A stretch of DNA of 20,000 nt from an uncultured virus (IMG/VR IMGVR_UViG_3300044644_001243) (IMGVR_UViG_3300044644_001243:108171-128170), one strand, 5' to 3'. Counted from the stretch's first letter, positions 856-19,427 are shown. Numbers and translations are program-made. The notes: generated from the letters alone by a model not told the origin.

Positions 856-894
856 GACGTGCTACGAGAGTAGAAGAGTAGACTCCAACACGTC
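856..894 (+). ncRNA. repeat sRNA motif, copy 1 (transcript ~845-945)
   Basis: GACGTG-CTAC-GAGA-GTAG-AAGAGTAGACTCC-AACACGTC; plus-strand promoter TTGC 809-812 / GATATTTG 832-839; hairpin 923-941 downstream. Confidence 0.7.
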
Positions 895-922
895 CATACG
901 TGAACAACGGCAACCAATAAAA

Positions 923-941
923 AAAGGGTGTAATACCCTTT
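923..941. terminator. bidirectional intrinsic terminator
   Basis: AAAGGGT-GTAAT-ACCCTTT flanked by A- and T-tracts. Confidence 0.65.
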
Positions 942-946
942 AATTT

Positions 947-1075
947 TTAATAACCTCCCGTAAAAGTAATTAATATACCTCCATTCTTTTCTTCTGACTC
1001 AAAGGTTACTCCCGATTTGATAAACCCATCTAACATATCAGTAAAAGTTTCAGTTGATACAAATAAAGTTCTCAT
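947..1075 (-). CDS. small hypothetical protein, 42 aa (MRTLFVSTETFTDMLDGFIKSGVTFESEEKNGGILITFTGGY), not in the ORF track
   Basis: Translated by hand; AAAACAAAACATT-ATG leader like its neighbours; ends just before the terminator. Confidence 0.75.
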   Translation of the reverse strand: MRTLFVSTETFTDMLDGFIKSGVTFESEEKNGGILITFTGGY

Positions 1076-1105
1076 AATGTTTTGTTTTTAGGATATATTT
1101 TTAAA

Positions 1106-1321
1106 TTAATTTACATCGTGGTCTTCAACAATTTCTAATTGTTCATCAGTTAAAACATCATCAGCAACCATTTCAACATAAAACTTTGTAAAAGGTATTT
1201 CATTTTCAAATTCCTCAACTTGTTCGTTAAAACTTTCTTTGTTATCAGCAACAATACTTCTACCAATGTTATCAGCACTATTCTTATCAAATGCTGTTAT
1301 TTGTACATAAACTTTTACCAT
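1106..1321 (-). CDS. acidic hypothetical protein (71 aa)
   Basis: ORF with promoter cassette at 1350-1381. Confidence 0.8.
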   Translation of the reverse strand: MVKVYVQITAFDKNSADNIGRSIVADNKESFNEQVEEFENEIPFTKFYVEMVADDVLTDEQLEIVEDHDVN

Positions 1322-1349
1322 ACTATTTTATTTTAATTGATTTATAAAA

Positions 1350-1381
1350 CAAAGATAAGCATAAGTTTTCACTTATGCAAA
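1350..1381 (-). promoter_or_regulatory. Bacteroidota sigma70 promoter with hairpin spacer; identical copies at 11546-11577, 12807-12838, 15938-15969
   Basis: Minus strand TTTGCATAAGTGAAAACTTATGCTTATCTTTG: -33 TTTG, 20-nt spacer, -7 TATCTTTG; GCATAAG/CTTATGC inverted repeat. Confidence 0.85.
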
Positions 1382-1530
1382 TCTTTTTCAAAGTTTTTTA
1401 CAAAAAAATCAGTAATATTATTTAGTTTTATTCTAACTTCTTCTGCGTCTTGTCCATTGTCTTCTAATTGGTCTGCGATGTCATAAAGACTAATCAATTC
1501 TTCCCATACTTTTTTAATTTCCTTTTCCAT
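1369..1530 (-). CDS. hypothetical helical protein (53 aa; start revised to MEKEIKK)
   Basis: The track start at 1572 runs through the promoter at 1555-1562; ATG at 1530 fits the leader pattern. Confidence 0.7.
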   Translation of the reverse strand: MEKEIKKVWEELISLYDIADQLEDNGQDAEEVRIKLNNITDFFVKNFEKDLHK

Positions 1531-1603
1531 AGTTTCTAGTTGTTTAGTGTGAAACAAAGATAAGGAATACATTTCAATATTCCTAATCTTTTAATGATTA
1601 TTT

Positions 1604-1813
1604 TTAATTTATTTTTACTTCTTTTTTAACACCTTTAAACTTAACAATAAATTTTTGCATTTCATTCCAAGTATTACAATTAAATATGGTTTCATTATTC
1701 CCACCAAGTGTTACCAAGTGCCAATCTCCACCACCATTTCCCGTAAAGTTATCAGCAATAATACACTTTTCTTCGTGTCCATGATAATCTATTGTATAAA
1801 CTTCTATTTTCAT
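1604..1813 (-). CDS. hypothetical protein (69 aa)
   Basis: ORF with promoter at 1842-1873. Confidence 0.8.
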   Translation of the reverse strand: MKIEVYTIDYHGHEEKCIIADNFTGNGGGDWHLVTLGGNNETIFNCNTWNEMQKFIVKFKGVKKEVKIN

Positions 1814-1889
1814 AACTTATATTGTTTTAATTAGTATATAACAAAGATAAGGAATACTTTTCAATATTCCAAATCTTTTGTAATTATTT

Positions 1890-2549
1890 TTATTGTGCCA
1901 ACTCAACAAGTTTTTGTTGTGTAGGTTTATGACTTTGTATCAATTCGTCCAATGTCATAAATGTTTTACAATTTTCTTTATCTCTATGTAACCATTCGTT
2001 GGTATTATAAGTCAAACCAACAATTTTGTATGCTTGCACTACTTTACCACTTTCAAGTGTTACTTTAACAATTTCACGTTTAAAATCAACATAGATTTTG
2101 TGGTATTGTTTGTTGTTAAAATAATCAAAGCGACTATCACCACTACTATATTTTTTTGTTTTGCTGACAAAAAATAATTGGGTTTCCCAACCTTTATGTT
2201 CACCCAATGGTTGTTCTTTTGTTCGTTCCAACATTTTATCCAACGTGTGTTGGTCTTGCTCACTATTAGGGTATCTATACCCCAACTCAACATTTACCAC
2301 TTTACCAAATTCTTTTTCAAACTCTTTAATGTCACTCTTAAATTGCGTCACAAAAACTTTCATCATTGTAAGATTGTGTTTCGCAATAGTTTCTTTGAAT
2401 CTGTCTTCTTCTTTTAGACACTCATTAATAGTATCAAAACTAAAACGTGATGTCCCATTAGTTGGTTTAGGGTTTATCCTTGTAAACTCACTAATTAAAC
2501 TATTTACTAAACCTTGTTGTAAACTTGTTAATTGTTCAAACTTTTCCAT
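1890..2549 (-). CDS. hypothetical protein (219 aa)
   Basis: Long ORF; promoter at 2580-2587. Confidence 0.9.
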   Translation of the reverse strand: MEKFEQLTSLQQGLVNSLISEFTRINPKPTNGTSRFSFDTINECLKEEDRFKETIAKHNLTMMKVFVTQFKSDIKEFEKEFGKVVNVELGYRYPNSEQDQHTLDKMLERTKEQPLGEHKGWETQLFFVSKTKKYSSGDSRFDYFNNKQYHKIYVDFKREIVKVTLESGKVVQAYKIVGLTYNTNEWLHRDKENCKTFMTLDELIQSHKPTQQKLVELAQ

Positions 2550-2574
2550 TGTGTTTTATTTTAATTGATTAATA

Positions 2575-2618
2575 CCCTACAAAGATAAACATTATTTTTA
2601 ATTCTGCAACTATTTTGT
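2575..2618 (-). repeat. 44-bp promoter block identical to 16535-16578
   Basis: CCCTACAAAGATAAACATTATTTTTAATTCTGCAACTATTTTGT at both sites. Confidence 0.9.
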
Positions 2619-2700
2619 AATAAAATAAAAATAAAATTATTTTCACTTTTTGCTTGCATATGTCAAATATTATTGCAATCTTTGTATTGTACAATTAAGG

Positions 2701-2747
2701 TACGTGCTGCGAGAGTAGAAGAGTAGACTCCGACACGTCTATACGTG
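2701..2747 (+). ncRNA. repeat sRNA motif, copy 2
   Basis: TACGTG-CTGC-GAGA-GTAG-AAGAGTAGACTCC-GACACGTC; promoter AATCTTTG at 2677-2684. Confidence 0.7.
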
Positions 2748-2771
2748 AACGGCAACCAACCATAAAAAAAA

Positions 2772-2789
2772 GGTGACACTACTGCCACC
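2772..2789 (-). terminator. intrinsic terminator
   Basis: Minus strand GGTGGC-AGTAGT-GTCACC followed by a T-tract. Confidence 0.65.
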
Positions 2790-3054
2790 CTTGTTTAGTT
2801 ATTTTAGGTTTACCATTAATTTTTTCCCACTTCTCAAACCATTCTCCCCATTCACCACGTCTGCTACGTGAAACAAAAACTGGGTCTTCACCAATATGAT
2901 TATCCAAAATATAATCTTTTAATGCTTTCTTTAATTCAGTATAAGTATTGAATTTCTTTGTTGTGTATTCAGTTCTTACACCATATCTTTCTACTCTGTA
3001 ATCGTGTAGACTTTCACTTGTCATATACGTTACTTGTGGTTTAAAATTTGCCAT
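2779..3054 (-). CDS. hypothetical phage protein (91 aa, C-terminal RRGEWGEWFE motif)
   Basis: ORF with promoter at 3079-3086. Confidence 0.85.
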   Translation of the reverse strand: MANFKPQVTYMTSESLHDYRVERYGVRTEYTTKKFNTYTELKKALKDYILDNHIGEDPVFVSRSRRGEWGEWFEKWEKINGKPKITKQGWQ

Positions 3055-3110
3055 TGTGTTTTATTTAATTTGTTTTAACAAAGATAATACTTACATTTGA
3101 CAATTCCAAA

Positions 3111-3578
3111 TTATAATGGAAATATTTTTGCACTTTTAAATTTATACAAAGGTGTGCCAATCGTTTCAAGTATGTCTATTTTATTTGTAAATCTTTCGTT
3201 CATACAATCGGCAACAATATAAATTCCGTCTTTATCACCACAACCAACCAATTTAACTTTTTGCTTATAGTCAAACTTACCACCCCAACGTTTTAATAAA
3301 TCTCTGCTCATTGCTATAAACTTTTGTTCACTTGCTTTAAATGGATTAATTTTTAACATACTTGCTGTCGTGTATGGGTCACTATCACATTGTCCTTCAA
3401 CTGCGTTATACATAGTTACCATTACTTTGGTATGTTTAACTTTTTTCTTTTTAGGTGCTTTTGGCTTGATTGTAGCCACTTTCGTATAGTGTGTAGTAAT
3501 AGTAGTTGTCTTCAATAAATAAACGCAACCAAAGACAATTAAACTTGATACTAATACTTCTTTGAATTTATACTTCAT
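3111..3578 (-). CDS. 3D (Asp-Asp-Asp) domain protein with N-terminal membrane anchor; putative peptidoglycan-acting
   Basis: VTMYN..QCDSDPYTTAS..IAMSRDLL..VADCM..KIDIL pattern typical of 3D/MltA-like domains. Confidence 0.8.
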   Translation of the reverse strand: MKYKFKEVLVSSLIVFGCVYLLKTTTITTHYTKVATIKPKAPKKKKVKHTKVMVTMYNAVEGQCDSDPYTTASMLKINPFKASEQKFIAMSRDLLKRWGGKFDYKQKVKLVGCGDKDGIYIVADCMNERFTNKIDILETIGTPLYKFKSAKIFPL

Positions 3579-3685
3579 TGCTTGTTAATTTAGATTGTTT
3601 TGCAAATATAAGAAAAACTTTTTAAATAAAAAAATTTATTTTACTTGTTTTTTAAAAATATTATTACAATCTTTGTATTGTCGGT

Positions 3686-3733
3686 GGACGTGCTACAAGA
3701 GTAGAAGAGTAGACTCCGTCACGCCCATATGCG
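3686..3733 (+). ncRNA. repeat sRNA motif, copy 3
   Basis: GGACGTG-CTAC-AAGA-GTAG-AAGAGTAGACTCC-GTCACGCCC; promoter AATCTTTG at 3668-3675. Confidence 0.7.
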
Positions 3734-3747
3734 AACGTTATGAAATT

Positions 3748-3766
3748 ATTTAGAATGAATATAAAT
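3748..3766. promoter_or_regulatory. Fur-box-like imperfect palindrome
   Basis: ATTTAGAATGAATATAAAT; near-identical copy at 19452-19470; 11 nt upstream of a plus-strand promoter. Confidence 0.5.
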
Positions 3767-3777
3767 AACAAAATTAT

Positions 3778-3808
3778 TTTGTTATGTGAAAAATAATGAT
3801 TACTTTTG
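3778..3808 (+). promoter_or_regulatory. sigma70 promoter, plus strand
   Basis: TTTG 3778-3781, 19-nt spacer, TACTTTTG 3801-3808. Confidence 0.6.
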
Positions 3809-3814
3809 TCCCTT

Positions 3815-4042
3815 GAATAATTATGGGTGTGACTACTCATATGAATAGTCACGCCATAACTATAAACAACAAACAAACAAGAGAGTGTTTAAGGTACAAC
3901 ACACAACCGATAATACTTTATAATATAGTGGTGCTATCCCACCCAAGATAGCACACTCGCATACTCATTGGCAACCAAGGTAATTACTCCCCAATCTGCG
4001 ATAAGTTAATAGTTAGACTATTCACTATATATATGTTTTTTT
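3815..4042 (+). ncRNA. candidate structured ncRNA (long hairpin plus four-way junction); strand not certain
   Basis: No credible ORF; stems 3821-3859, 3923-3930/4023-4030, 3931-3954, 3957-4001, 4008-4022; T-tract 4036-4042. Confidence 0.55.
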
Positions 4043-4104
4043 GGTTATGCTCGGAAACTTAATCCACTACACCATATACCTACCAAAAACTTTCTTTCTT
4101 ATTA

Positions 4105-4136
4105 CAAATGTATGAATTATTTTTTAAACTTCCAAA
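4105..4136 (-). promoter_or_regulatory. sigma70 promoter firing into the ORF-less structured region
   Basis: Minus-strand TTTG (4133-4136), 20-nt spacer, TACATTTG (4105-4112). Confidence 0.6.
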
Positions 4137-4209
4137 TAATTCTTAAACTTTTTTTAAACTTTTTTTTCATCACCCCAACACACACCACACACCCCCATAC
4201 ACCACACGA

Positions 4210-4232
4210 GTACAGATTTCTGTACAAGGTAT
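4210..4232. repeat. 23-bp inverted repeat partner of 19968-19990, with palindromic core
   Basis: GTACAGATTTCTGTACAAGGTAT is the exact reverse complement of 19968-19990. Confidence 0.85.
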
Positions 4233-4510
4233 TACTTGATAGGTGCTAACACATCTATTTGAGTGTCATCAAACGTATCACTAGCATTTAATGATAGTTT
4301 ATACACACCATTTGTTTTTGGGTGCAACCTATGTCTAACTTCGTGGATAATTTTATCCTTATGTTTATAACTACCCATATATTGCCACTCTTCACCTCCA
4401 TTCAATGCAACCATTGGTTCATCAATATTCTCATTGATTGGATGATTAGCAACAAAGTTCCATATGTAATCCCATTCAGTTGAATTGTGTTTTATGTTTA
4501 AAAATTCCAT
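4232..4510 (-). CDS. hypothetical phage protein (92 aa, EEWQYMGS..HEVRHRLHP motif)
   Basis: ORF; promoter at 4515-4546 directly abuts the ATG. Confidence 0.85.
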   Translation of the reverse strand: MEFLNIKHNSTEWDYIWNFVANHPINENIDEPMVALNGGEEWQYMGSYKHKDKIIHEVRHRLHPKTNGVYKLSLNASDTFDDTQIDVLAPIK

Positions 4511-4527
4511 ATAACAAATGTATGCAA

Positions 4528-4866
4528 TTAAAATGAGAAATGCAAATGTTTATTAATAAAACTTTCAATATTTTTTCCTTGTACTGCGTCCAAAAATTCA
4601 TCATCACTAGTATCCAATGTCATAAGTATACCATCTGCTTGTTTTGGGTAACCACTATTAAATGGTTCAATACCTTTGCTACTCACATCGTAATTAGATA
4701 AAATAGGAATTGAACTAAACCCCACATACCTTGTTTCAATTTCATCGGGCAAACATTTATATGCGTCTGCCAATAACCATTTAACTTCTTCAACTCTATC
4801 TAATTCCATATCTGCACTTTGTTGTGCTATAACATTATCGTTATAAATAAATTGTACTAATTTCAT
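4528..4866 (-). CDS. hypothetical protein (112 aa)
   Basis: ATGA overlap with the upstream gene. Confidence 0.8.
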   Translation of the reverse strand: MKLVQFIYNDNVIAQQSADMELDRVEEVKWLLADAYKCLPDEIETRYVGFSSIPILSNYDVSSKGIEPFNSGYPKQADGILMTLDTSDDEFLDAVQGKNIESFINKHLHFSF

Positions 4867-5096
4867 TCCCTTGCTAATTTAACATCAATTTCTAAATCAG
4901 TTCTGCCACTTCCATAACGTGGTTCAACTTTACCATTTCTTCTCCATACAACCACAATATAACCATTGTGTAAATTTGGTTTACCACAAATAGGGTCTTG
5001 TACCAATCCAACATATAGATTATCTCTTTCTTTGTACCTTAAATCTTTTATTGGATAACCACCCAACGTTTGTGTTATTTTATCTATATTTTTCAT
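4863..5096 (-). CDS. hypothetical protein (77 aa)
   Basis: Operon-packed ORF. Confidence 0.8.
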   Translation of the reverse strand: MKNIDKITQTLGGYPIKDLRYKERDNLYVGLVQDPICGKPNLHNGYIVVVWRRNGKVEPRYGSGRTDLEIDVKLARE

Positions 5097-5097
5097 A

Positions 5098-5340
5098 TTA
5101 ATAAGTTGCTATAAATAAACAAATTTCTTTTACAAATATTAAATTACATTTTAATAAATCAAAGACAATACGTTCAGCGTTTATTGCATCTATCAAATCT
5201 TTTTTATTCATTGATAAATAAAAATAACTTGCTTCTGCTTCATCTATTTTATCAACACTTTCTGCAAAAGTATCAGTTGATAAAATATTGGTATCTAACA
5301 TTCTGTTAAATTCTTCAAGTGTCCATTCTTTAAATTCCAT
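5098..5340 (-). CDS. hypothetical protein (80 aa)
   Basis: ORF; promoter at 5366-5373. Confidence 0.8.
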   Translation of the reverse strand: MEFKEWTLEEFNRMLDTNILSTDTFAESVDKIDEAEASYFYLSMNKKDLIDAINAERIVFDLLKCNLIFVKEICLFIATY

Positions 5341-5402
5341 AATTTCTAGTGTTTATTTGTTTCTTCAAAGATAAGTAATTTATTTCAATATTCCAAACAA
5401 AA

Positions 5403-5426
5403 AAGGGTAAAATTAATTTTACCCTT
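5403..5426 (-). terminator. intrinsic terminator
   Basis: AAGGGTAAAA-TTAA-TTTTACCCTT just after the 5435 stop. Confidence 0.7.
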
Positions 5427-5434
5427 ATTTTATT

Positions 5435-6097
5435 TTATCTTTCCATTAGGTCAAATACTAATTCAGTAAAGCCTTTTGGTATTTCTGCTTTTTTTGAAAC
5501 AACACTTATTTTATCTCTCGCCCAAACTCCAATTAACTCAACGTTGCCTTGTTTCTTTTCGGTGCTAACAAAAAAGTCACCACCACCTCTGCCGTTGCCC
5601 TCACAAGTCAATAATGGTAAAGGGTGTATTTTCCATCCGTCACTATCTTTTGGTGTTTTGGTTTTATTAACAAATTCTTTTTTGTCGTGGTTCACCAAAT
5701 ACTTTGCCGTCAAAGGTGCAACCCCTTTGTAATCGTGTTCATATTTGCTTTTAACACTTTCAGTATGTGTAATTCTACCGATAGTATCAGATAAACTATA
5801 TAAGTTCACACCTTTTTCTTTCAATACTTTGCTATTCCAATACTCACTTTCTTCGTCTGCTAATAATTTTATTTCAGCATTTGAAAGTGTTGTTGGGTCT
5901 TCCTCGTCTGCATAGTCGCCAGCCCAAACAAGTTTTTGTGGTGCAACCATAAGTTGTCGTTCAACAAATCTTACCATTGGATTTTTCTCCCAAGAATGTT
6001 CCATTAATTTTGCACCACTTCCAAAGTCGTAAGATGATACACTTGCTATTGGTTTTTGGTTCTCTGCCAAAAATACTGCTTTGTAATACTGTCCCAT
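5435..6097 (-). CDS. conserved-type phage protein of unknown function (220 aa)
   Basis: MGQYY..KLMEHSW..VWAGDYAD..HPLPLLT..GNGRGGGDF motifs recalled from phage hypotheticals. Confidence 0.9.
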   Translation of the reverse strand: MGQYYKAVFLAENQKPIASVSSYDFGSGAKLMEHSWEKNPMVRFVERQLMVAPQKLVWAGDYADEEDPTTLSNAEIKLLADEESEYWNSKVLKEKGVNLYSLSDTIGRITHTESVKSKYEHDYKGVAPLTAKYLVNHDKKEFVNKTKTPKDSDGWKIHPLPLLTCEGNGRGGGDFFVSTEKKQGNVELIGVWARDKISVVSKKAEIPKGFTELVFDLMER

Positions 6098-6452
6098 AAT
6101 ATATTGTTTTTATTTGTTTATGTAAAGATAAGTAAATTATTTCAATCTACCAAATTTATTTTAATCTTTTTTCAAAATAATTTCGTGTAGATAAACTTGT
6201 GCCTCACTTCCAAAATCATTGTATTGAATTAGAATAGGATACATACTAAAATCGTCATTATCAAATTCTTCATCAATGTCTTCAATGAAATTGATTGTGT
6301 AATCGTTTCCTTTGATTGGGTCGGGGTCATTCCAAACCAATTGCTTATTCTCTGACAATGCTTGTTTTAAATCTGCTAAACTTCTCATAATATATTGTTT
6401 TTATTTGTTTATGTAAAGATAAGTAATTTATTTCAAACTACCAAATTTATTT
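6095..6452 (-). repeat. 67-bp direct repeats (6095-6161 and 6386-6452) flanking one gene
   Basis: 65/67 identical; each contains promoter, leader and ATG. Confidence 0.9.
6161..6388 (-). CDS. acidic hypothetical protein (75 aa)
   Basis: ORF between the direct repeats. Confidence 0.8.
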   Translation of the reverse strand: MRSLADLKQALSENKQLVWNDPDPIKGNDYTINFIEDIDEEFDNDDFSMYPILIQYNDFGSEAQVYLHEIILKKD

Positions 6453-6726
6453 ACAACATTTTTCTAACTTTTTCAAAATGTTTTTCTATTTGATTAACAA
6501 ACTTAATAGCACTTTGCTTTGTTTTAGCATAAGCGAAAAACTGACAAAACTCGCTATCAAATTCAATGCCTTTACAATTTATCTTTTCTTGTATAAACTC
6601 TTCAAAGTCATAAGCACTCTCAAACTCTTTTATAGTCATGCTTTTTTTAGGGTTGCCCGTAATGGTAATGTCATCACCATTATCATAAACTTTCATTCCA
6701 ATTGGGGATATATAAATTGCTTCCAT
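6451..6726 (-). CDS. hypothetical protein (91 aa)
   Basis: ORF; hairpin promoter at ~6751-6782. Confidence 0.8.
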   Translation of the reverse strand: MEAIYISPIGMKVYDNGDDITITGNPKKSMTIKEFESAYDFEEFIQEKINCKGIEFDSEFCQFFAYAKTKQSAIKFVNQIEKHFEKVRKML

Positions 6727-6797
6727 TTGTTTTTGTTTTATTTGTTTCAGTAAAGATAAGGATAAGTTTTCACTTATCCAAATCTTTTTTAATTATT

Positions 6798-7518: not shown

Positions 7519-7631
7519 AACTTTTAATTTAATTTGTTTCAACAAAGATAATAAATCTTTTTTAAATAAAAAAACTTTTTTTGTTAGGATATTAATTTTT
7601 TTTATCTTACATTTGTAAGGTCAATCAGTTA

Positions 7632-7670
7632 GACGTGCCGTGGGAATGGAAGACTAGACTCCAACACGTC
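7632..7670 (+). ncRNA. repeat sRNA motif, copy 4
   Basis: GACGTG-CCGT-GGGA-ATGG-AAGACTAGACTCC-AACACGTC; promoter TACATTTG at 7608-7615. Confidence 0.7.
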
Positions 7671-7696
7671 CATACATTGGCAACCATACCAAAAAA

Positions 7697-7722: not shown

Positions 7723-7744
7723 CTCCCATCAATCAAAACAAACA

Positions 7745-10329: not shown

Positions 10330-10407
10330 AAGTTCTATGTTTTATTTGTTATAACAAAGATAGTAAAAAGAAATGACACTACCAAATGATAGTGCCATTA
10401 TTTTAAA

Positions 10408-11247
10408 TTATTTTTCTACTTTTTCTAATTCCTTTTGTATTGTTGCAACCAACTCAAAGTTTTCATTTGCCAACGCAATCTCTTTAAATCGTTCCAACAC
10501 ATTCCTTGCATAGCCACAATCCTCGGTTGGCATATAATCTCTATCGTATGCAATTTCAATCATTGAATTTGTAAACTTTGATAATTCCTCGTCTTCATCT
10601 ACATCACAAAAATCATCACCTAAATAATAGTCTTCACCACCTTGAATATTAAGAGCCATTTCGTATGCTTCACGTGTGCCACCTTCGGGTACATTTTCTT
10701 CAATTTCAACTCCACCTACCAAAGTATAAGTTCCTACATTGTAACCAAAGTCTTCATCAGCATATTCAACTTCAATACGTGCTTCGGGATATTTTTCAGA
10801 TAGTTTTAAAAATAAGTTGAAAGGTGTACTCCACGCAGTATTAAAACTTACACTCTCATTATCATCACTCCAATACACATCACTTGCGTTCCACTTTGTA
10901 CCCCAATTACTAATTTGCCACCCATACCAATCAGCATAACCAAATCGTTCAATAAAATCATCGTGCATTTCTTTTGTAATACCTCTCGATACTCCAAAAC
11001 GTACTTCACTTTCCGTTAATTCACCTTTGGTAATACGTTCCTCTTGTATATCGTATTCCTCTTGTGTAATAATGCGACAAGGACTTGTTGTACCTACCAA
11101 TTCAGTTGGTATTGGTGCAATTTGATTAAAATCAAATTCTTTGTCTTCACCATTACTATATGGTGTTCCTTTTACTTCTTCTCTAATCTTTGCTAATAAA
11201 GTTTCATCAGCAATGATTCTTACGTTGTTTGTAATCCAGTTTGGCAT
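10408..11247 (-). CDS. DUF1281 / YubB ferredoxin-like domain protein
   Basis: MPNW.N..FDFN.I.P.P..WY.W...NWGTKWN..F.TAWS.P..LS.KYP signature. Confidence 0.85.
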   Translation of the reverse strand: MPNWITNNVRIIADETLLAKIREEVKGTPYSNGEDKEFDFNQIAPIPTELVGTTSPCRIITQEEYDIQEERITKGELTESEVRFGVSRGITKEMHDDFIERFGYADWYGWQISNWGTKWNASDVYWSDDNESVSFNTAWSTPFNLFLKLSEKYPEARIEVEYADEDFGYNVGTYTLVGGVEIEENVPEGGTREAYEMALNIQGGEDYYLGDDFCDVDEDEELSKFTNSMIEIAYDRDYMPTEDCGYARNVLERFKEIALANENFELVATIQKELEKVEK

Positions 11248-11523: not shown

Positions 11524-11594
11524 AATGTTTTGTTTTAATGTTTATCAAAGATAAGCATAAGTTTTCACTTATGCAAATCTTTTTTAAAAATGTT

Positions 11595-11972
11595 TTATAT
11601 TATTTTATATAAACCAAAATCAACACTACCAATTTGTTCATACTTTTGATTATCCACTACTTCACCATTTAACAACCAATTTGGTTGCACCCTTGGATTG
11701 TATTTAATTCTATGACAATAGGTATCAAGTTGTAAAAACTTATTTGTGTTAATCACAATTGATTCACACAATACCCACGCACACACAACTTTTTCACCCC
11801 CATTATAAATCTTTTCAGCGACTTTCTTATGGTTGCCTAACTGACAATTCACCATCACCAATTGAGTGCTTGTAGGGTCATAATATTCAACTTCACCATT
11901 AGGGTATTGAACTTTCCATTTCATAAAGTTCTTACCTCTACCTAAATTGAATCTAACTTTAATTCGTTTCAT
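11595..11972 (-). CDS. hypothetical phage protein (125 aa)
   Basis: ORF; promoter at 11997-12004. Confidence 0.85.
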   Translation of the reverse strand: MKRIKVRFNLGRGKNFMKWKVQYPNGEVEYYDPTSTQLVMVNCQLGNHKKVAEKIYNGGEKVVCAWVLCESIVINTNKFLQLDTYCHRIKYNPRVQPNWLLNGEVVDNQKYEQIGSVDFGLYKII

Positions 11973-12115
11973 AATCGTTTGTTTAATTGTTCTCTACAAA
12001 GATAGTAATTATTTCCATTCCCACAACACTTTTATTAAAAAAAAATAAAATTATTTTTTTTGCTATTTTACTTGCATATGTCAATTATTATTGCAATCTT
12101 TGTATTGTCAAGTTA

Positions 12116-12151
12116 GACGTGCCGTGGGAATGGAAGAGTAGACTCCAACGT
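12116..12151 (+). ncRNA. repeat sRNA motif, copy 5
   Basis: GACGTG-CCGT-GGGA-ATGG-AAGAGTAGACTCC-AACGT; promoter AATCTTTG at 12095-12102 (block 12071-12108 nearly identical to 2653-2690). Confidence 0.7.
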
Positions 12152-12178
12152 GCCTTTTATTTTTTTACACGCACAAAA

Positions 12179-12513: not shown

Positions 12514-12516
12514 AAT

Positions 12517-12780: not shown

Positions 12781-12855
12781 AACTCTTATTGTTTTTGTTT
12801 GTGAAACAAAGATAAGCATAAGTTTTCACTTATGCAAATCTTTTTTTAATTTATT

Positions 12856-13245: not shown

Positions 13246-13662
13246 TTATTTTGGTGCAACACAATTATACAATAAGTTCTCCACAATCAATTCCCACGTT
13301 GCCGTTTTGTCTTCCTCTGCTTCACTATCGTAGTATTTTAATACTTCGTTAATCTCTGCAATACTCGGATTCATTTTTAAATCCATAGCAACCCTTACAA
13401 CGTCTTCAACACTAATTTGTTTTGTTAAGATTTCTTCTTCGTCAAACTCACTATTATTTTGGCAACCCTCATACCATAAATCGGGACAATCAGATAAATC
13501 CATTACTGACTTGCAACACGCACATTCAATTTCAGAATCCATTCTATCGTGTAATAATACACTACCACAATTTCCACACGTTACAATATTAATACTTGCT
13601 ACTGCATTAACTCTGTTTTGTAACTCAATTTGTTTTTCTGCTAATTCTCTTTTAGTTTTCAT
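13246..13662 (-). CDS. zinc-ribbon-containing protein (138 aa)
   Basis: CGNCG...CACC...DCPDL. Confidence 0.85.
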   Translation of the reverse strand: MKTKRELAEKQIELQNRVNAVASINIVTCGNCGSVLLHDRMDSEIECACCKSVMDLSDCPDLWYEGCQNNSEFDEEEILTKQISVEDVVRVAMDLKMNPSIAEINEVLKYYDSEAEEDKTATWELIVENLLYNCVAPK

Positions 13663-13745
13663 AATGTTTGTTTTTGATTACAATACAAATATAGTAAAAA
13701 TAAAATAACCTACCAAATATTTGATAGGTTATTTTTAAATTATTT

Positions 13746-14183
13746 TTAATTTCTTCTTCTTGGAAAAAACCCTTGGTCGGGGTCACCTAAACTACAAGTC
13801 TCCAAATCTTCATACGTACCTTTGAATGAAGCTGAAACTAATTTTAAAGGGTATTTAAGTTTTAATATTTGTTCATCGTAACAACCAATGTCAATACCTT
13901 TACTTCTATTGTAATCAGTATGTTCATCAATTTGTTTCATCAATGGATATTCACCCTCAAATTTCAAATCCTCTGCATTGTTCCAAAATGCTAATAGTTC
14001 ATACATATCGTATTTAGGTTCACCACTAATTTCTTTTGTTCCTAGTTCACCATAATCTTGATAGTAATCTTTGATAAACCCACCACCAAATTCTTTTGGT
14101 ATTAAGAATTTAAAAGGTGTACCATAAGCAACATTTTCAGTGTTCGTTAATTCATCTGCTTTGTTCCAACTAAAACTTCCCAT
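13746..14183 (-). CDS. conserved-type phage protein (145 aa; MGSFSW..YQDYG..DPDQG)
   Basis: ORF; promoter at 14205-14212. Confidence 0.9.
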   Translation of the reverse strand: MGSFSWNKADELTNTENVAYGTPFKFLIPKEFGGGFIKDYYQDYGELGTKEISGEPKYDMYELLAFWNNAEDLKFEGEYPLMKQIDEHTDYNRSKGIDIGCYDEQILKLKYPLKLVSASFKGTYEDLETCSLGDPDQGFFPRRRN

Positions 14184-14259
14184 AATCTTTATTTTTAATG
14201 TTTAACAAATATAAGAATAATAATCCAATCTACCAAATATAAATTGGATTATTATTAAA

Positions 14260-14454
14260 TTATTTGTTGTACTTATCTTTTAAGAAATTTTCCATACATT
14301 CGTATTCACCTTTGGTGTCAACATTGAATTTGCTTTTGTCATACTCATCATATAAACTTGGCAAATCATCCCATTGCTCGTCATAACAAGCGTCAGCAAA
14401 TTCCTTGTCATAAAATTTGATAAGGTTGCTAAATAAATACATACTATAATCCAT
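14260..14454 (-). CDS. acidic hypothetical protein (64 aa; start revised to MDYSMY)
   Basis: The track start overlaps the promoter at 14485-14492. Confidence 0.75.
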   Translation of the reverse strand: MDYSMYLFSNLIKFYDKEFADACYDEQWDDLPSLYDEYDKSKFNVDTKGEYECMENFLKDKYNK

Positions 14455-14544
14455 AGGTTCTAAAGTTTTAATTGGTTTGTTTAACAAATATAAGAATAAA
14501 GATTGGATAAACAATAACATTCATCCAATCTTTTTAATTTTATT

Positions 14545-15384
14545 TTAAACTAATTTACCTTGGTTACTCAAAATTCGTTTCTCTTCCAACAAATCTTTTG
14601 TATTACTTTCAGTACTACTCATTATTAGTTGCCTTAACATTTGGTCTTCCATACCAACTTCCTTTAAGATATACTGCATAGTTTCTCCGTCAACATCAAT
14701 TACTTTTAACTTCGCAATAATGTCTTTTACAATATTATGGTTATCATCTGAATAACATAAAAAAGTTGGTACACTTGGTAACTCAAAGTCTTCTTTAAAC
14801 ATATCTCTAAAATAGCCACCATTTTGTTGGTTATTTGCTTTTTCATCCAACCATTCAACTTTAACACAATTATCGTTACTTTCGTGTTCCGTTGTATAGT
14901 CTTCGGTTACTCTCGCTTTAGCACCACCATTAACACTATAATATTGTCTTGTTTCTTTCCACTCAACAATACTATCTTTTGGTATTAATACCTTTGGTTC
15001 TTCCTTGGGTAATGTTGCAACATATTCTGCTACACTTCTAGGTTTAAATTTATCCTCTATTTCTTCTTTTGGTTCTTCGAATAAACCATACCAATTACAC
15101 TCTATTGGTTCATTAATGGTTAAATCTAATGCAATGTTAATATCAGTAACACTTCTTTGTAGTATCTCTACATTATCATACCCAATACTTTCTTCCAATT
15201 TAACTTGATTAGTAAATAGTATCTCGTGACTATCAACATTAGTACGTTTAACACATTCAATACGTTTTTCAACTTCTGCTATCTTATCAGACAAATCTGT
15301 CAACGCCATATCAACTTCATCACCTATTTGATACAAGTCCCAACGTTTTAAAGTTTCTACTAAATTGTTAAATTCATTTCTCAT
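14545..15384 (-). CDS. hypothetical multidomain protein (279 aa; start revised to MRNEFNN)
   Basis: Long ORF; promoter at 15409-15416. Confidence 0.85.
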   Translation of the reverse strand: MRNEFNNLVETLKRWDLYQIGDEVDMALTDLSDKIAEVEKRIECVKRTNVDSHEILFTNQVKLEESIGYDNVEILQRSVTDINIALDLTINEPIECNWYGLFEEPKEEIEDKFKPRSVAEYVATLPKEEPKVLIPKDSIVEWKETRQYYSVNGGAKARVTEDYTTEHESNDNCVKVEWLDEKANNQQNGGYFRDMFKEDFELPSVPTFLCYSDDNHNIVKDIIAKLKVIDVDGETMQYILKEVGMEDQMLRQLIMSSTESNTKDLLEEKRILSNQGKLV

Positions 15385-15422
15385 AATATTTGTTTTTAAT
15401 TGTTTCAACAAAGATAAATAAA

Positions 15423-15692
15423 CTATTTCAATTTTCCAAATTTATTTTCAAATTTCTTACTTACCCAACTATAATTCCCACTTGCAAAAATTTCCATTAT
15501 CTCATTATCAACATAATCACCCTCGGCAATTAGATTCATAACCCTATTATGTTTTTTAGCAAATAATTTTTTATCTTTGTGGTCGCCCATTGGATAAAAA
15601 TAAATGTGTGTACTTGTTTCTAATACCCTCTCGTATTTTATATCGTCAGTACTACGTAAACAACTTTTAACTATTTTCATAACATTAATCAT
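15423..15692 (-). CDS. hypothetical protein (85-89 aa; start at 15692 or 15680)
   Basis: Overlaps the upstream stop (translational coupling). Confidence 0.75.
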   Translation of the reverse strand: MINVMKIVKSCLRSTDDIKYERVLETSTHIYFYPMGDHKDKKLFAKKHNRVMNLIAEGDYVDNEIMEIFASGNYSWVSKKFENKFGKLK

Positions 15693-15915
15693 TAATATGT
15701 TCCCAACCCTCTAACTCTTCCAATTCCATACCCATAGGTCTTAACCCATATGGTTCTGCGTCCAAATAGTAATCAAAGGTATAACCCAATGGTTCTATCT
15801 CACTCAATATCCTATCTAACTCAAAATAGGTGTTTCCACTATCCTCATCAAATGATTCCAATATTGCTTGTACTTCGTTTGGTATCAACTCTGGTGTTTC
15901 AAATAAATCTTTCAT
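15685..15915 (-). CDS. acidic hypothetical phage protein (76 aa)
   Basis: ORF; promoter cassette at 15938-15969. Confidence 0.85.
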   Translation of the reverse strand: MKDLFETPELIPNEVQAILESFDEDSGNTYFELDRILSEIEPLGYTFDYYLDAEPYGLRPMGMELEELEGWEHIND

Positions 15916-15975
15916 AACTTTTATTGTTTTGTTTAATCAAAGATAAGCATAAGTTTTCACTTATGCAAATCTTTT

Positions 15976-16515
15976 TTAATAATTCGTAACTAATTTTAAT
16001 TGATAATCATAACTGAATTTTCCGTTGTTATGTTCATCACAACATTTAGCACAAGCATAAGTCTTTCTAATCACTTTGTGTTTTGGTGTTTCTTTACCAC
16101 AACTCTCACATAACAAAGTATATTTTGATTTAGGTAAATTAACACTATCACTACTAAAACATCTTTTAGCGTCACAACCAATTTGTTTTGCAATATGTTG
16201 CCAATTGTACCCATGACCTCTTCCGTCCCTTACACCATACACGTGAACACAAAATGCGTGTGCCAATTCGTGCAACATAGTGTCAGTAATCTTTGTGTCT
16301 ATTTTATCTAAATTTTCATTACATAGTGGCATAGATAAACCAATAGTTTTTTTACCATAACTACAGCAACCAAATCTACGTTTTGCACTATCAAACTTAA
16401 ACGTATAACCTAATTGTTCACCACTCAATGTATAAACCCCATGGTACGTGTTAAACGTGAATTGTTTTGTCATTAATGTTTCTGCCATTAATCTTACGTC
16501 ATTTAAATTTTTCAT
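15976..16515 (-). CDS. SprT-like zinc metalloprotease with C-terminal zinc ribbon
   Basis: KRRFGCC, HELAH (HExxH), GHG..W, CESC..CAKC. Confidence 0.9.
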   Translation of the reverse strand: MKNLNDVRLMAETLMTKQFTFNTYHGVYTLSGEQLGYTFKFDSAKRRFGCCSYGKKTIGLSMPLCNENLDKIDTKITDTMLHELAHAFCVHVYGVRDGRGHGYNWQHIAKQIGCDAKRCFSSDSVNLPKSKYTLLCESCGKETPKHKVIRKTYACAKCCDEHNNGKFSYDYQLKLVTNY

Positions 16516-16667
16516 TGTGTTTTGTTTTATTGTTCCCTACAAAGATAAACATTATTTTTAATTCTGCAACTATTTTGTGAGAAAATAATTATTTTTTTTT
16601 ATGCAACAAAAGTTTGTTTTTTAAATATATTATCCCTACCTTTGTTTTGTTGGTGGTGATAACCGAA

Positions 16668-16708
16668 ACGGGTCGAGGGAAATCTTGAAAGAGTAGACTC
16701 CAACCTAC
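16668..16708 (+). ncRNA. repeat sRNA motif, copy 6 (divergent)
   Basis: ACGGG-TCGAGG-GAAA-TCTTGA-AAGAGTAGACTCC-AACCTAC; promoter TACCTTTG at 16637-16644. Confidence 0.7.
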
Positions 16709-16784
16709 CTTATATTTTTTTTACCATATAAGAAAAAAATTTGCAAAGGTACAAAATAAATTCGACCTTTGCAAATAAAGTTAT

Positions 16785-16815
16785 TTACAAGGGGGTGTTG
16801 ATAACCCCCTTGTAA
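16785..16815. terminator. strong hairpin terminator after the DUF932 gene
   Basis: TTACAAGGGGGT-GTTGATA-ACCCCCTTGTAA. Confidence 0.75.
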
Positions 16816-16820
16816 CTTTG

Positions 16821-17705
16821 TTAGTAATTTAAAGCAAATTCCAAACTTGCTTGGTTCATATTGTAACCCGTTCCTTGTAACAAAGTTTCAACTTTACCAT
16901 TGTCACGTTTTGGTGCTGACAATTCGTGTGTAGTGTAATATGTAATTCCACTATGTAAACCCCACAACGTGTCACCTTTGCTATTCATTTCACGTTCAAT
17001 AGCGTTGTATAAAGCATCCATTTTGTTTATACTACGTGTAGACTTATCTGACAAGTCTTTTACACTTGTATACACTTTGTCAAACCCTAATAAGTGTTTA
17101 ACCATTTTGTGTGCCAAATCACGTGAAACTTGCGTACTTGCAAATTGATTGTAGATTTCAATTTGTCTTAATGATTCAGATAAAGCCGTTTCAATAAGGA
17201 AAGGAATTTCTTTGATTCTACGTTCCAAACTTGCCGTATGACGAAATTTAGATTGTCCACTTTTGTAGAACTTAAAAAATTGGTTACTGCAACTCATAGT
17301 TAAATCACCAATACCTACCGATAGACCCGTACTGCCGTCATTACTATCCACGATAGTAATATACTTCTTAATAGTGTCACCATTAACTTTGCCGTCACCA
17401 TTGATAGCAAGTTGTAAAAACACTTTGCGTCCACCATTCAACGCACCACCTTTGGTAACTTGAATATCGTTTCCGAAAGGTTCAATTCCACGCATAACCA
17501 ACTCAACAACCTCTTCGTTTTGAGATACCGTATAACCCTCTTTTACGGTGTTAATCACTTCATTCGTGCTTGAATTAATCAAACCGAAATACTCACTTGG
17601 TACATAGATACCATTAGAATTTAAAGCCATCATAGGTGCTTTTTCAATTGTAAAATCTAATCCATTAGACTTTAAAATTTCTTGTACTTTTTCTTGTGTG
17701 TTCAT
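16821..17705 (-). CDS. DUF932 (phage/plasmid-like, TIGR03299-related) protein
   Basis: GLDFTIEK..Y.VSQNEE..GALNGGRKVF..SNDGS..CSNQ..RHT..GDTLWGL..IT.Y..H pattern. Confidence 0.85.
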   Translation of the reverse strand: MNTQEKVQEILKSNGLDFTIEKAPMMALNSNGIYVPSEYFGLINSSTNEVINTVKEGYTVSQNEEVVELVMRGIEPFGNDIQVTKGGALNGGRKVFLQLAINGDGKVNGDTIKKYITIVDSNDGSTGLSVGIGDLTMSCSNQFFKFYKSGQSKFRHTASLERRIKEIPFLIETALSESLRQIEIYNQFASTQVSRDLAHKMVKHLLGFDKVYTSVKDLSDKSTRSINKMDALYNAIEREMNSKGDTLWGLHSGITYYTTHELSAPKRDNGKVETLLQGTGYNMNQASLEFALNY

Positions 17706-17876
17706 CTTATTTGTTTTTTAGATTATTAATACATTACAAATGTAACGCTTTTTTTTTAATTTCCAAACTTTTTATATAAAATAATGAAAAAAAAATTATT
17801 TTTATTTTTAATCACTTTTTTCTTGCATATCTAATTTATTATTTCTACATTTGTATTGTAGATGATTGATAATCGA

Positions 17877-17915
17877 TACGTGCCGTGGGAATGGAAGACT
17901 AGACTCCGTCACGTC
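17877..17915 (+). ncRNA. repeat sRNA motif, copy 7
   Basis: TACGTG-CCGT-GGGA-ATGG-AAGACTAGACTCC-GTCACGTC; promoter TACATTTG at 17846-17853. Confidence 0.7.
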
Positions 17916-17947
17916 CATATAAAAAAAATAAAAATTAAAAACAAAAA

Positions 17948-17968
17948 CCCCTACTATTTTAGTAGGGG
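17948..17968. terminator. bidirectional intrinsic terminator
   Basis: CCCCTACTA-TTT-TAGTAGGGG flanked by A- and T-rich tracts. Confidence 0.75.
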
Positions 17969-17976
17969 ATAATTTT

Positions 17977-18336
17977 TTAACATTCTGCGTCAAAACGACA
18001 AGCACCATTTTCTTTTATACAATCCCTTATTTGTATACCCAAACATAAATCTGCGTAATCACTTAATTCACTTGTGGTAATATTTGCCTCTGCCAACATA
18101 CTATCATTGTAACCATTGTTTGTTCTAAAAAAGTCTTCTATGACTTTTATTTGTTCACCCAAACTTTGCTCAATATTAGCAATTTCTTCTTCCACACCTT
18201 CTAAATCACTTTCTTCGTAATAGTACTCTAATATGTTTGGTTGTTGTCCACTTACACCAAACCTATCTGCACAATCCGAAGATTGTAGTGCAAACCAAAA
18301 CTTTCCTTCAATGTCACCCGAATAATAACGTCCCAT
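17977..18336 (-). CDS. conserved-type phage protein (119 aa; MGRYYSGDIEGKFWF motif)
   Basis: ORF; promoter at 18368-18375. Confidence 0.9.
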   Translation of the reverse strand: MGRYYSGDIEGKFWFALQSSDCADRFGVSGQQPNILEYYYEESDLEGVEEEIANIEQSLGEQIKVIEDFFRTNNGYNDSMLAEANITTSELSDYADLCLGIQIRDCIKENGACRFDAEC

Positions 18337-18436
18337 AATTTATTTTATTTAATTGATTAATACATTACAAATATAAACATTCTTTTTTAATTTCCTACTA
18401 CTTTATATAAAAAGTTTTAAAAAAAATTACCCTACA

Positions 18437-19153
18437 TTAATGTAGGATAATTTCTATACTTTTATTTGTTTTAGTTCCTAACTTTCCACTACATAAATTA
18501 CAAGCACTACAACTCGACTTATAACCCATTTCTTTACTCGCTGGGCAACCAACATACCCTAACTTATTTTCAGTTGCTACAAACGACCTATAACCTAAAA
18601 TTTCAGCACTTTGTTGCTCACTTGTTGTATGCGTACTTGCCATAAAATAATCACCTAAATTAGTTTTATTCCATTGGTGCGTATAACCCGTCCAATTGTC
18701 GCATACTTTTACCATAGAACGAATTAATTCAATTGGGTGCAAACTTGGTTCACCATACGTTCCGAAACGTACATAAGTACCTTTGCTCATTTTGGTAACT
18801 TTGTCTAACATTGAAATATCAAAGTTAGGTATATTGTCTATACTACCAAACTTTCTAAATACACTTTTTAAAGATGAAATAAAACCAACGTATTGATTAA
18901 ATTTATGTGTATAACATTTGCCATAAGAATTGAAAGGACAATCCAAACAATTGCTATCTGCGTTACTAAAAAAGTTTTTCATGCCAATTGCTTCATTCGT
19001 TTCAAAACGTTTCTTAACTAACTCAAATTGCTTATAAGAAAACGTGTACGTTTGTACTATCTTACGTTTCTTATTAGATTCAATTTTGTCATTCTTTGTT
19101 GTTGCTAACGTAACAACTTGAATAGTGTCTTTGTGTTTAAATACCAAACTCAT
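18437..19153 (-). CDS. Cys-rich putative Fe-S protein, GP88/radical-SAM-like (238 aa)
   Basis: CxxCP..CY, VRFGTYGEP, WTGYTHQW, CPAS..CxxCxLC; the family call is tentative. Confidence 0.6.
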   Translation of the reverse strand: MSLVFKHKDTIQVVTLATTKNDKIESNKKRKIVQTYTFSYKQFELVKKRFETNEAIGMKNFFSNADSNCLDCPFNSYGKCYTHKFNQYVGFISSLKSVFRKFGSIDNIPNFDISMLDKVTKMSKGTYVRFGTYGEPSLHPIELIRSMVKVCDNWTGYTHQWNKTNLGDYFMASTHTTSEQQSAEILGYRSFVATENKLGYVGCPASKEMGYKSSCSACNLCSGKLGTKTNKSIEIILH

Positions 19154-19366
19154 ATGTAATTGTTTTAATTGATTAATACCCTACAAAGATATATAAACTT
19201 TTTTAATATCCTACTACTTTATAAAAAATAATTAAAAAAAATTTTAATACCACTATTCTATAAATGTACACGTGTACATATGTGCGTGTGTAATATAATA
19301 AAAAAATAATTAATAAAAAAATTTTTTTTATTAGGATATTAAATTTATTATACCTACATTTGTATT

Positions 19367-19427
19367 GTAGGTTTGAAAGAGATACGTGCTGACTTAACAA
19401 GTTTCAGAAGAGTAGACTCCAACCTAC
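19367..19427 (+). ncRNA. repeat sRNA motif, copy 8
   Basis: TACGTG-CTGA..TCAG-AAGAGTAGACTCC; 5' GTAGGTT pairs with 3' AACCTAC; promoter TACATTTG at 19355-19362. Confidence 0.7.

Follow-up and report, generated by a model that had tools for sequence, protein, structure and literature searches.

Why should one short sequence recur, without a single mismatch, in the gaps between the genes at one end of a viral genome record? The stretch of DNA that poses this question, hereafter the window, comprises 20,000 nucleotides (nt) of the uncultured-virus record IMGVR_UViG_3300044644_001243 (positions 108,171 to 128,170). It is the final 20 kb of a 128,170-bp IMG/VR record with a completeness of 38% by CheckV, and the element under study is an intergenic repeat in which a 13-nt core, AAGASTAGACTCC, follows a hairpin of varying sequence. 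We propose, with moderate confidence, that each repeat is a small self-contained RNA gene belonging to a phage-restricted family, which would be expressed early from its own promoter as a transcript of ~55-110 nt carrying an invariant 3' module that binds a conserved partner.

A dispersed intergenic repeat

The eight copies of the core in the window, at 874, 2719, 3705, 7650, 12134, 16689, 17895 and 19408, all lie on the plus strand with no mismatches, as the initial annotation of this DNA had reported; 0.19 copies were expected, and none of 200 shuffled sequences reached eight. Five more copies are found just upstream of the window in the same record, which contains 13 in total (12 exact and one GAGAGTAGACTCC), all confined to 101,941-127,590, that is, to its last 26 kb, and a reversed-pattern control gave no matches over the whole record. 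Eleven copies are on the plus strand and two on the minus strand, and both of the latter sit exactly where the open reading frames (ORFs) switch to the plus strand, so that all 13 copies run opposite to the local genes. The units are dispersed, with spacings of at least 986 nt in the window, and intergenic, with none inside a gene; each converges on the 3' end of the preceding gene, while its plus-strand promoter diverges from that of the next minus-strand gene.

Each copy is composed of ACGKG, a hairpin, R-AGASTAGACTCC and then RWC, with ACAAG in place of ACGKG in the two minus-strand copies. Among the window copies the 5' flank is ACGTG in seven and ACGGG in one, and RWC is present in all eight. 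In five copies ACGTG can pair with CACGT two bases 3' of the core. Seven types of stem are represented in the 13 record copies, namely CCGT/ATGG (four copies), CTAC/GTAG (three), CTGC/GTAG (two), and TCGCT/AGTGA, TTGCT/AGCAA, TCGAGG/TCTTGA and CTGA/TCAG (one each). All 56 of their base pairs are standard, with nine G-U and no A-C, and these nine would read A-C on the opposite strand. Six of the eight window loops are GNRA (GAGA twice, GGGA three times, GAAA once), the other two being AAGA and a loop of 11 nt. The flank consensus, the five stems of the window copies and the six GNRA loops had already been put forward in the initial annotation, and we find them as it described them. The window copies are listed below.

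857..893, plus strand: RNA motif copy 1; ACGTG, CTAC-GAGA-GTAG, core at 874-886, AA, CACGT; the minimum-free-energy structure pairs ACGUG with CACGU around the hairpin
2702..2738, plus strand: RNA motif copy 2; CTGC-GAGA-GTAG with a G-U pair, core at 2719-2731
3688..3726, plus strand: RNA motif copy 3; CTAC-AAGA-GTAG, core at 3705-3717; covariance-model score 24.4 bits
7633..7669, plus strand: RNA motif copy 4; CCGT-GGGA-ATGG, core at 7650-7662 (C variant)
12117..12166, plus strand: RNA motif copy 5; CCGT-GGGA-ATGG, core at 12134-12146, then a T run; covariance-model score 21.9 bits
16668..16722, plus strand: RNA motif copy 6; ACGGG, TCGAGG-GAAA-TCTTGA with two G-U pairs, core at 16689-16701, AACCTAC, T run; covariance-model score 30.4 bits, the best of the phage's own copies
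17878..17914, plus strand: RNA motif copy 7; CCGT-GGGA-ATGG, core at 17895-17907 (C variant)
19384..19441, plus strand: RNA motif copy 8; CTGA, loop of 11 nt, TCAG, core at 19408-19420, AACCTAC, T run; covariance-model score 25.3 bits

The record encodes a major head protein, portal, large terminase, DNA polymerase, helicase and tail fibre. Within the window, 22 of 25 ORFs scanned against Pfam had no match, and the few domains matched in the region are SprT-like, DUF932, DUF1281_C and L5 gp82-like; the window has the look of an accessory or, presumably, an early region of a phage.

Predicted promoters and transcript ends

A (T/A/G)AnnTTTG box ends 12-24 nt 5' of ACGKG at all eight window copies, and at six of them the full TTG-N17-21-(T/A/G)AnnTTTG pattern is matched; the copies at 7650 and 19408 carry TAGGATAT where the others have TTGCATAT. 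The view that every copy has a promoter of its own, taken in the initial annotation, thus holds for the -7 box at all eight, but for the complete spacing from TTG at only six. A strict scan for this pattern gave 14 matches on the plus strand of the window, six of which are directly upstream of copies, and 37 on the minus strand, of which almost every one stands ~20 nt ahead of a minus-strand ORF, and every gene neighbouring a repeat has its own promoter. The pattern TTG..TAnnTTTG is presumably that of the Bacteroidota primary sigma factor. The use of one promoter type both for the small genes and, in the opposite direction, for the repeats is the main reason for reading the repeats as separate plus-strand transcription units, in agreement with the initial annotation, and since their promoters match those of the neighbouring genes we infer that host RNA polymerase would transcribe them.

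Hairpins that score as terminators on the plus strand follow copies 1, 6 and 7, at 923-941, 16785-16815 and 17948-17968 only, and those that score on the minus strand follow copies 1, 2, 5 and 7; copies 5, 6 and 8 lead directly into a T run. The initial annotation had placed a terminator hairpin after most copies; the hairpins in fact score mostly on the minus strand or on both, no more than three score on the plus strand, and at three copies a T run takes the place of a hairpin.

809..839, plus strand: promoter of copy 1 (TTGCATAA..GATATTTG); matches TTG-N-(T/A/G)AnnTTTG, -7 box at 832-839
2654..2684, plus strand: promoter of copy 2; strict match, -7 box at 2677-2684
3645..3675, plus strand: promoter of copy 3; strict match, -7 box at 3668-3675
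7581..7615, plus strand: promoter of copy 4; -7 box TACATTTG at 7608-7615, -33 region TAGGATAT at an unusual spacing, no match to the strict pattern
12072..12102, plus strand: promoter of copy 5; strict match, -7 box at 12095-12102
16614..16644, plus strand: promoter of copy 6; strict match, -7 box at 16637-16644
17823..17853, plus strand: promoter of copy 7; strict match, -7 box at 17846-17853
19332..19375, plus strand: promoter region of copy 8; TAGGATAT, with a -7 box that is either TACATTTG at 19355-19362 (by eye) or TAGGTTTG at 19368-19375
923..941, both strands: hairpin after copy 1; terminator score on both strands
2769..2792, minus strand: hairpin after copy 2; terminator score on the minus strand only
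17948..17968, both strands: hairpin after copy 7; terminator score on both strands

A second box, GGCAACCA, occurs seven times in the window against 0.34 expected (at 909-916, 2751-2758, 7679-7686 and 3970-3977, at 176 and 18544 on the plus strand and at 11830 on the minus strand). Three of these boxes stand 23-35 nt 3' of a core and immediately ahead of a hairpin, and may be part of an extended version of the RNA.

A phage-restricted family with a covarying hairpin

A scan of IMG/VR viral sequences with AAGAGTAGACTCCNNC returned at least 126 stretches. Among the matches listed we compared 122 distinct 95-nt stretches that contain the exact core, 12 of them from the studied record; at least 93 share the architecture described above (those 12 and at least 81 from other viral contigs), and 29 look like chance. 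Beyond the seed, the members have in common a 5' strand rich in G and a hairpin separated from the core by a single base, and they continue 3' of the core as RN-C-CUAC or RN-C-ACG. The same scan applied to 185,579 cellular genomes returned at least 120 stretches, and the 120 cellular matches listed include only one family member, which lies on a 12.5-kb contig, with two copies, of a Bacteroidota metagenome-assembled genome, a distribution which suggests that the family is restricted to phages.

A covariance model constructed from 32 equal-length members found 101 matches in 95 sources, from which an alignment of 97 distinct rows was prepared. In the hairpin, designated P2, all six pairs change on both sides and 91.9% of the cells are paired; its covariation score is 0.345, compared with 0.140 +/- 0.009 for shuffled alignments (none of 500 reached it) and with at most 0.130 when the partners are slid by one to three columns. 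An independent hand alignment agrees, the terminal P2 pair being C-G in 75 and U-A in 17 of 93 members. On the motif strand P2 has 36 G-U against 11 A-C combinations. Both the covariation and the preference for the motif strand, which the initial annotation had read from the G-U wobbles of eight copies, are seen in the wider family. The core itself is largely unpaired in predicted folds.

Two further helices were considered as candidates. A long closing helix in which the 5' leader would pair with the 3' tail is unsupported, with a duplex energy of -5.7 kcal/mol against -5.5 kcal/mol for shuffled sequences. A third helix between core and tail, GUAG/CUAC, is possible in most members, but the core is invariant and the column statistics place no pair clearly above expectation.

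The family does not correspond to a catalogued RNA. A search of the window against Rfam 15 at E<=1 returned MicX alone, with a score of 33.3 bits where the gathering score is 75; the matched minus-strand segment, 2621-2805, spans copy 2 on the opposite strand. In the same search of 20 family loci (5.2 kb) at E<=10 there were 17 weak matches to 17 different families, none of them recurring, and only snoR25 at locus L289 (21.9 bits, gathering score 50) overlaps the motif. No copy thus has a match near a gathering score, in line with the initial annotation, which did not recognise the element as a known family. ARAGORN found no tRNA or tmRNA genes in the window. Full-text literature searches for the core in four spellings gave only unrelated human-gene papers, and those for small RNAs of Flavobacterium and Cellulophaga phages and for structured or self-cleaving RNAs gave no description of the motif. 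For phage phi14:2, a preprint describes non-coding RNAs that are abundant early and arise in two intergenic regions. We regard the family as undescribed but of a broad kind that is known, either phage small RNAs with promoters of their own or structured RNA motifs of the orphan type.

Distribution and context in other phages

No named phage contains near-identical DNA detectable by megablast, and blastn with short queries identified only Flavobacterium phage immuto and Tenacibaculum phage Larrie, the other matches being chance. In Larrie, a phage of 77.5 kb in the genus Cbastvirus, two copies are firm and two more are covariance-model matches with E-values of 0.0027 and 0.074. Both firm copies are antisense, three of the four model matches run opposite to nearly all annotated genes and one lies on the gene strand, and none of the copies is annotated as RNA. 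The immuto copy is likewise antisense to the genes. It belongs to a subfamily, with nine further distinct viral-contig sequences, in which AAGAGUAGAC is kept and UCCRNCC is replaced by GGGCCGG, and in which a small hairpin GGC/GCC, GAG/CUC or GGU/ACC can be discerned by eye. Other core variants are AAGGGUAGACUCC, AGGGUAGACUCC, A(A/G)GGGUAGACUCC and UAGAGUAGACUCC, and the part common to all variants is approximately RAGRGUAGAC.

The initial annotation had described the repeats as running antisense through an early-gene array. The units are intergenic, and in four other phages, G004 (142 kb, five copies), G001 (two copies), G003 and G005, the RNA is in sense with the flanking small genes; orientation relative to the genes, which is antisense in the studied record, Larrie and immuto, is not a property of the element. 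The gene strand of G004 has 69 promoters of the form TTGTAAC-N14-20-TTATA, a type other than that of the studied phage, and each of its five copies has one such promoter just upstream and another downstream for the next gene, so that the RNA is placed much as a small gene would be. Among 88 members with sufficient flanking sequence, a box of the TAnnTTTG type is found upstream on the motif strand in 36, as against 11 in an equal span downstream and eight on the other strand; the remaining members are preceded by conserved sequences of other kinds.

Of 38 cases in contigs of 30-80 kb, 23 have the RNA within 10% of a contig end, where 7.6 would be expected, and seven have it within 2%; the distance to the end is 115-175 nt in G002 and G003. 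The end-located copies include loci L021, L027, L115, L116 and L117, and five copies are within ~300 nt of a contig end. The RNA may mark the leading end of the genome, but this is a hint only, as contig ends are not proven genome ends and repeats can break assemblies.

How the RNA might act

In the model that we favour, a host-type promoter directly upstream would start transcription a few to ~20 nt ahead of the G-rich strand, which is ACGKG here and mostly (A)CGGG elsewhere. The P2 hairpin would come next, free in sequence and length but with its pairing kept, and after it a 3' module, R-AAGAGUAGACUCC-RN-C, that hardly varies and that a short P1 helix of three to six pairs closes; the transcript would end at a U run or a nearby hairpin, giving ~55-110 nt. 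Host polymerase would produce the RNA from its many copies immediately upon entry of the DNA, and the RNA would act in trans. The hairpin, with its changing sequence, may act as a scaffold, and the invariant and mostly single-stranded module may contact a single conserved partner. This partner would most likely be a host factor, either a protein or an RNA-protein machine, for example a sensor of defence, a nuclease or the transcription apparatus; the RNA would titrate or redirect it. We read the element as a trans-acting, partner-binding RNA because it combines a varying hairpin and a nearly fixed, mostly unpaired module with strong promoters, a high copy number and a location within or ahead of the early genes. 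From the interpretation in the initial annotation this model keeps the separate promoter-driven units, the covarying hairpin and the absence from catalogues, and it drops the antisense array as a defining property, the base-pairing seed and the CRISPR decoy.

Several observations weigh against this model. Folding energies are unremarkable, with z-scores of -2.45 to +0.64 on the plus strand and -2.79 to +0.46 on the minus strand, and the minus strand folds at least as well as the plus. Folding energy therefore does not single the element out, and the case for an RNA rests on the covariation of the hairpin, the asymmetry of G-U pairs and the position of the promoters. The covariation figures in turn lean towards structure, because the alignment in which pairs were counted had been fitted to the model. 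P1 is weak: in the model alignment one pair is an invariant G-C (92 rows), the second is G-C in 69 and otherwise in 18, and the third is G-U in 47 and otherwise in 27, while in the hand alignment the second pair is G-C in 63, U-A in eight (mostly from the studied phage), A-C in eight and G-A in seven, and the third is G-U in 47, G-C in 15 and U-U in 19. The lack of support for a helix between leader and tail, noted above, counts in the same direction. The 13-mer is also less invariant than the seed search suggests, since a search with the exact core preselects invariant cores and variants do exist. The one metatranscriptome run to share words with the window (5% of those sampled) gave 15 short contig pieces at 90-99% likeness, of which the eight listed all lie off the motif copies; the run is evidence neither for nor against expression. 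The role of a decoy acting in trans is pure inference on our part, and no partner protein emerged from an all-against-all blastp comparison of seven phage records, which left thymidylate synthase as the only protein present in all seven; a comparison of this sensitivity would miss distant relatives.

A SprT-like zinc metalloprotease (PF10263, E-values of 2e-13 to 5e-9) is encoded by four of these seven records, at 15976-16515 on the minus strand of the window, at 80107-80685 in G004, at 1829-2389 in G005 and at 10341-10889 in Larrie. In three of the four carriers the gene lies ~160-420 nt from a copy of the RNA, in differing arrangements.

A larger claim can be put forward only tentatively, and we consider it possible but doubtful: that these RNAs constitute a widespread class of phage early RNA, the first product of the incoming genome and often made from many copies, in which RAGRGUAGAC captures or reprogrammes one conserved host machine, and which would serve unrelated phages of Bacteroidota, and perhaps of other hosts, as a takeover or counter-defence device made of RNA only.

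Alternative explanations

The main rival, in our judgement an unlikely one, is a leader that acts in cis. The nascent hairpin and conserved stretch, or the non-template DNA, would load a factor onto the polymerase just after it leaves the upstream promoter, as at lambda nut, HK022 put or RfaH ops sites, and so decide between stopping at the U run and reading through, read-through giving early-gene transcripts where the element is in sense and antisense RNA over the early genes in the studied phage. The element is always ~10-25 nt from its promoter, a U run or hairpin comes after it, its hairpin beside a conserved single-stranded box is the layout of nut and rrn leaders, it precedes a run of same-strand small genes in G003 and G005, and its excess near contig ends would fit the head of an early operon. 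Against these stand the promoters of the downstream genes and the variable orientation of the element: every neighbouring gene in the window has its own promoter, as does the next gene after the element at four of the five copies in G004, and the orientation of the element to the genes differs between phages. By eye the box has no evident likeness to boxA or ops, and the blastp comparison yields no candidate factor common to the seven phages.

Somewhat less likely still is an element that functions as DNA, either a promoter and terminator cassette that shuffles small early genes in the manner of PeSL cassettes or the site of a phage DNA-binding protein, in which case the hairpin would matter only at the level of DNA, if it matters at all. 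Repeated promoter cassettes crowd the window, its direct-repeat families D1-D8 having 5-16 copies each, and copies of the element adjoin the terminators of upstream genes; an element of this kind would also account for RNA stability no better than that of shuffled sequences and for the about equal folding of the two strands. It would not account for a stem that covaries at six of six pairs while the flanks diverge, nor for the excess of G-U over A-C in the family and in the record copies. The same core stands behind at least two promoter types in unrelated phages, and a recombination cassette would not be expected to keep 13 nt fixed across phages in which all else changes.

That the RNA regulates by base pairing, with the invariant single-stranded module as a seed for a conserved host or phage RNA, is improbable, for all that the succession of hairpin, conserved and largely unpaired stretch, and U tail suits such a regulator. 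The 12-mer complement of the core is present in 20 of 301 Bacteroidota genomes, never at more than two sites, as compared with 43 for the reversed control. In the phage record, complementary words of at least 9 nt are found at the motif sites only, and the start regions of 234 ORFs pair no better with the RNA than with shuffled tails: the two best pairings are with ORF calls that overlap the motif itself, and the third best, at -12.6, compares with a mean best of -13.5 among controls. These searches, which address perfect seeds of at least 9 nt, give no conserved complementary site in the 301 genomes or the studied phage, and the seed proposed in the initial annotation finds no footing in them.

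We regard a small-molecule aptamer, or a ribozyme that cleaves itself at the conserved junction, as very improbable. High conservation confined to an internal loop between two variable helices is typical of small ribozymes and riboswitches, and in several members a U run follows directly 3'. Yet no ribozyme or riboswitch model matches in the 5.2 kb of family loci at E-values up to 10, P1 has only three to six poorly supported pairs, one subfamily exchanges 7 nt of the conserved loop, and there is no consistent downstream gene.

Least probable of all is a decoy of an RNA-guided or RNA-antitoxin defence, a kind of role raised among others in the initial annotation; such a decoy would mimic either a CRISPR repeat, as a solitary Racr does, or a type III antitoxin. 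Many CRISPR repeats do consist of a hairpin with a fixed tail, and the units are solitary, promoter-driven and phage-borne as Racrs are. Yet the motif-sense 12-mer is found in 20 of the 301 Bacteroidota genomes at no more than two per genome and so is no CRISPR array repeat in those sampled, the CRISPR-DR models of Rfam match no motif in the window or the 20 loci, the hairpin varies freely where a mimic should track one repeat, and the copies are widely spaced and not in tandem.

Other features of the window and of related contigs

The gene promoters of the window are themselves repeated cassettes, as on the minus strand at 1350-1380, 11546-11576, 12807-12837 and 15938-15968, with many relatives. 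Many of them hold a perfect palindrome between the -33 TTG and the -7 box, such as GCATAAGTGAAAACTTATGC (identical in four), GGAATTGT..ACAATTCC and GGATAA..TTATCC, which scores as terminator-like on both strands. These palindromic cassettes could be operator sites or PeSL-like shuffling cassettes.

Two stretches poor in ORFs, 3579-4231 and 19421-19617, lie downstream of copies 3 and 8. Both contain a 64-nt element (TTATTTAGAATGAWTATAAAT..) that ends in a further plus-strand promoter (3779-3808 and 19482-19512), and beyond 3808 there are more hairpins and a GGCAACCA box. The palindromic AGAATSATTCT part of this element is also found 3' of the RNA in contigs L014, L048, L050, L062 and L106, and the 64-nt element may be a second non-coding unit or an operator.

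One 47.8-kb viral contig, IMGVR_UViG_3300044530_001678 (loci L017, L064 and L065), has three copies identical over 95 nt to those of the studied record and is probably the same or a very close phage, and a 233-kb contig holds several copies. G001 (IMGVR_UViG_3300047157_000162, 129.5 kb) contains nearly every gene family twice, in the order seen in G002 and G003 (56-61 kb), and looks like two related genomes of ~60 kb joined together, with one copy of the RNA in each. G002 and G003, genomes of podovirus size with genes for GroEL and a sigma-factor-like protein, each have a giant ORF (33057-41378, 2,773 amino acids, in G002; 24377-32146, 2,589 amino acids, in G003, the latter with no PHROG match). 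These may be virion-packed polymerases of unknown type.

Significance and relation to known systems

The core appears to be under very strong selection, as many as 13 promoters are predicted to serve it in one genome, and in mid-sized phages the RNA tends to lie near the contig end. Larrie and immuto are cultured phages with cultivable hosts, so that expression, partner and phenotype are directly testable. Should the partner be a host defence or a takeover target, the RNA would represent a new RNA-based phage tool; should the element instead be a leader, it would be a new transcription control signal for Bacteroidota phages.

Racrs, or RNA anti-CRISPRs, are described by Camara-Wilpert et al. 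2023 (PMC10651486) as solitary, promoter-driven small non-coding RNAs of phages. They resemble the motif RNA in being phage-encoded solitary units with a hairpin and a fixed tail and in having been proposed as decoys, and differ from it in copying a host CRISPR repeat, whereas the motif core is no array repeat in the Bacteroidota genomes sampled and its hairpin is free to vary. Type III antitoxins of the ToxI kind consist of short tandem repeats, in contrast to motif copies at least 986 nt apart; no tandem family is present among the direct repeats of the window, which were identified without Tandem Repeats Finder.

The PeSL (promoter-early stem-loop) cassettes of T4-type phages, attributed to Arbiol et al. 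2010, reportedly lie in gene orientation with a stem-loop that ends the upstream gene, and have been proposed to promote shuffling. Like the motif unit they are short, repeated, intergenic combinations of an early promoter and a stem-loop within arrays of small early genes; the motif unit differs in that 13 of 13 copies in the studied record oppose the genes, its stem covaries, and its 13-nt module is kept across unrelated phages. The lambda nut sites, the boxA-boxB leaders of rrn operons and HK022 put share with the motif a hairpin beside a conserved single-stranded box after an early promoter, but the motif box is by eye unlike boxA, the downstream genes have promoters of their own, and orientation to the genes is not fixed.

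The lambda oop, P22 sar, P4 CI and P1 c4 RNAs, each present once per genome and confined to its lineage, act by pairing with a particular complementary transcript of the phage. They are comparable to the motif RNA in size (60-80 nt), in having a promoter and terminator of their own, and in lying near early regions, often opposite to their neighbours; the motif RNA is distinguished from them by up to 13 copies, by the lack of a complementary phage target beyond its own sites, and by members in many unrelated phages. Few of the small RNAs encoded by phages have a known role, and those that do are mostly confined to a single lineage. The motif RNA, unlike these, is carried by many unrelated phage contigs, with at least 81 distinct members beyond those of the record in which it was first noticed.

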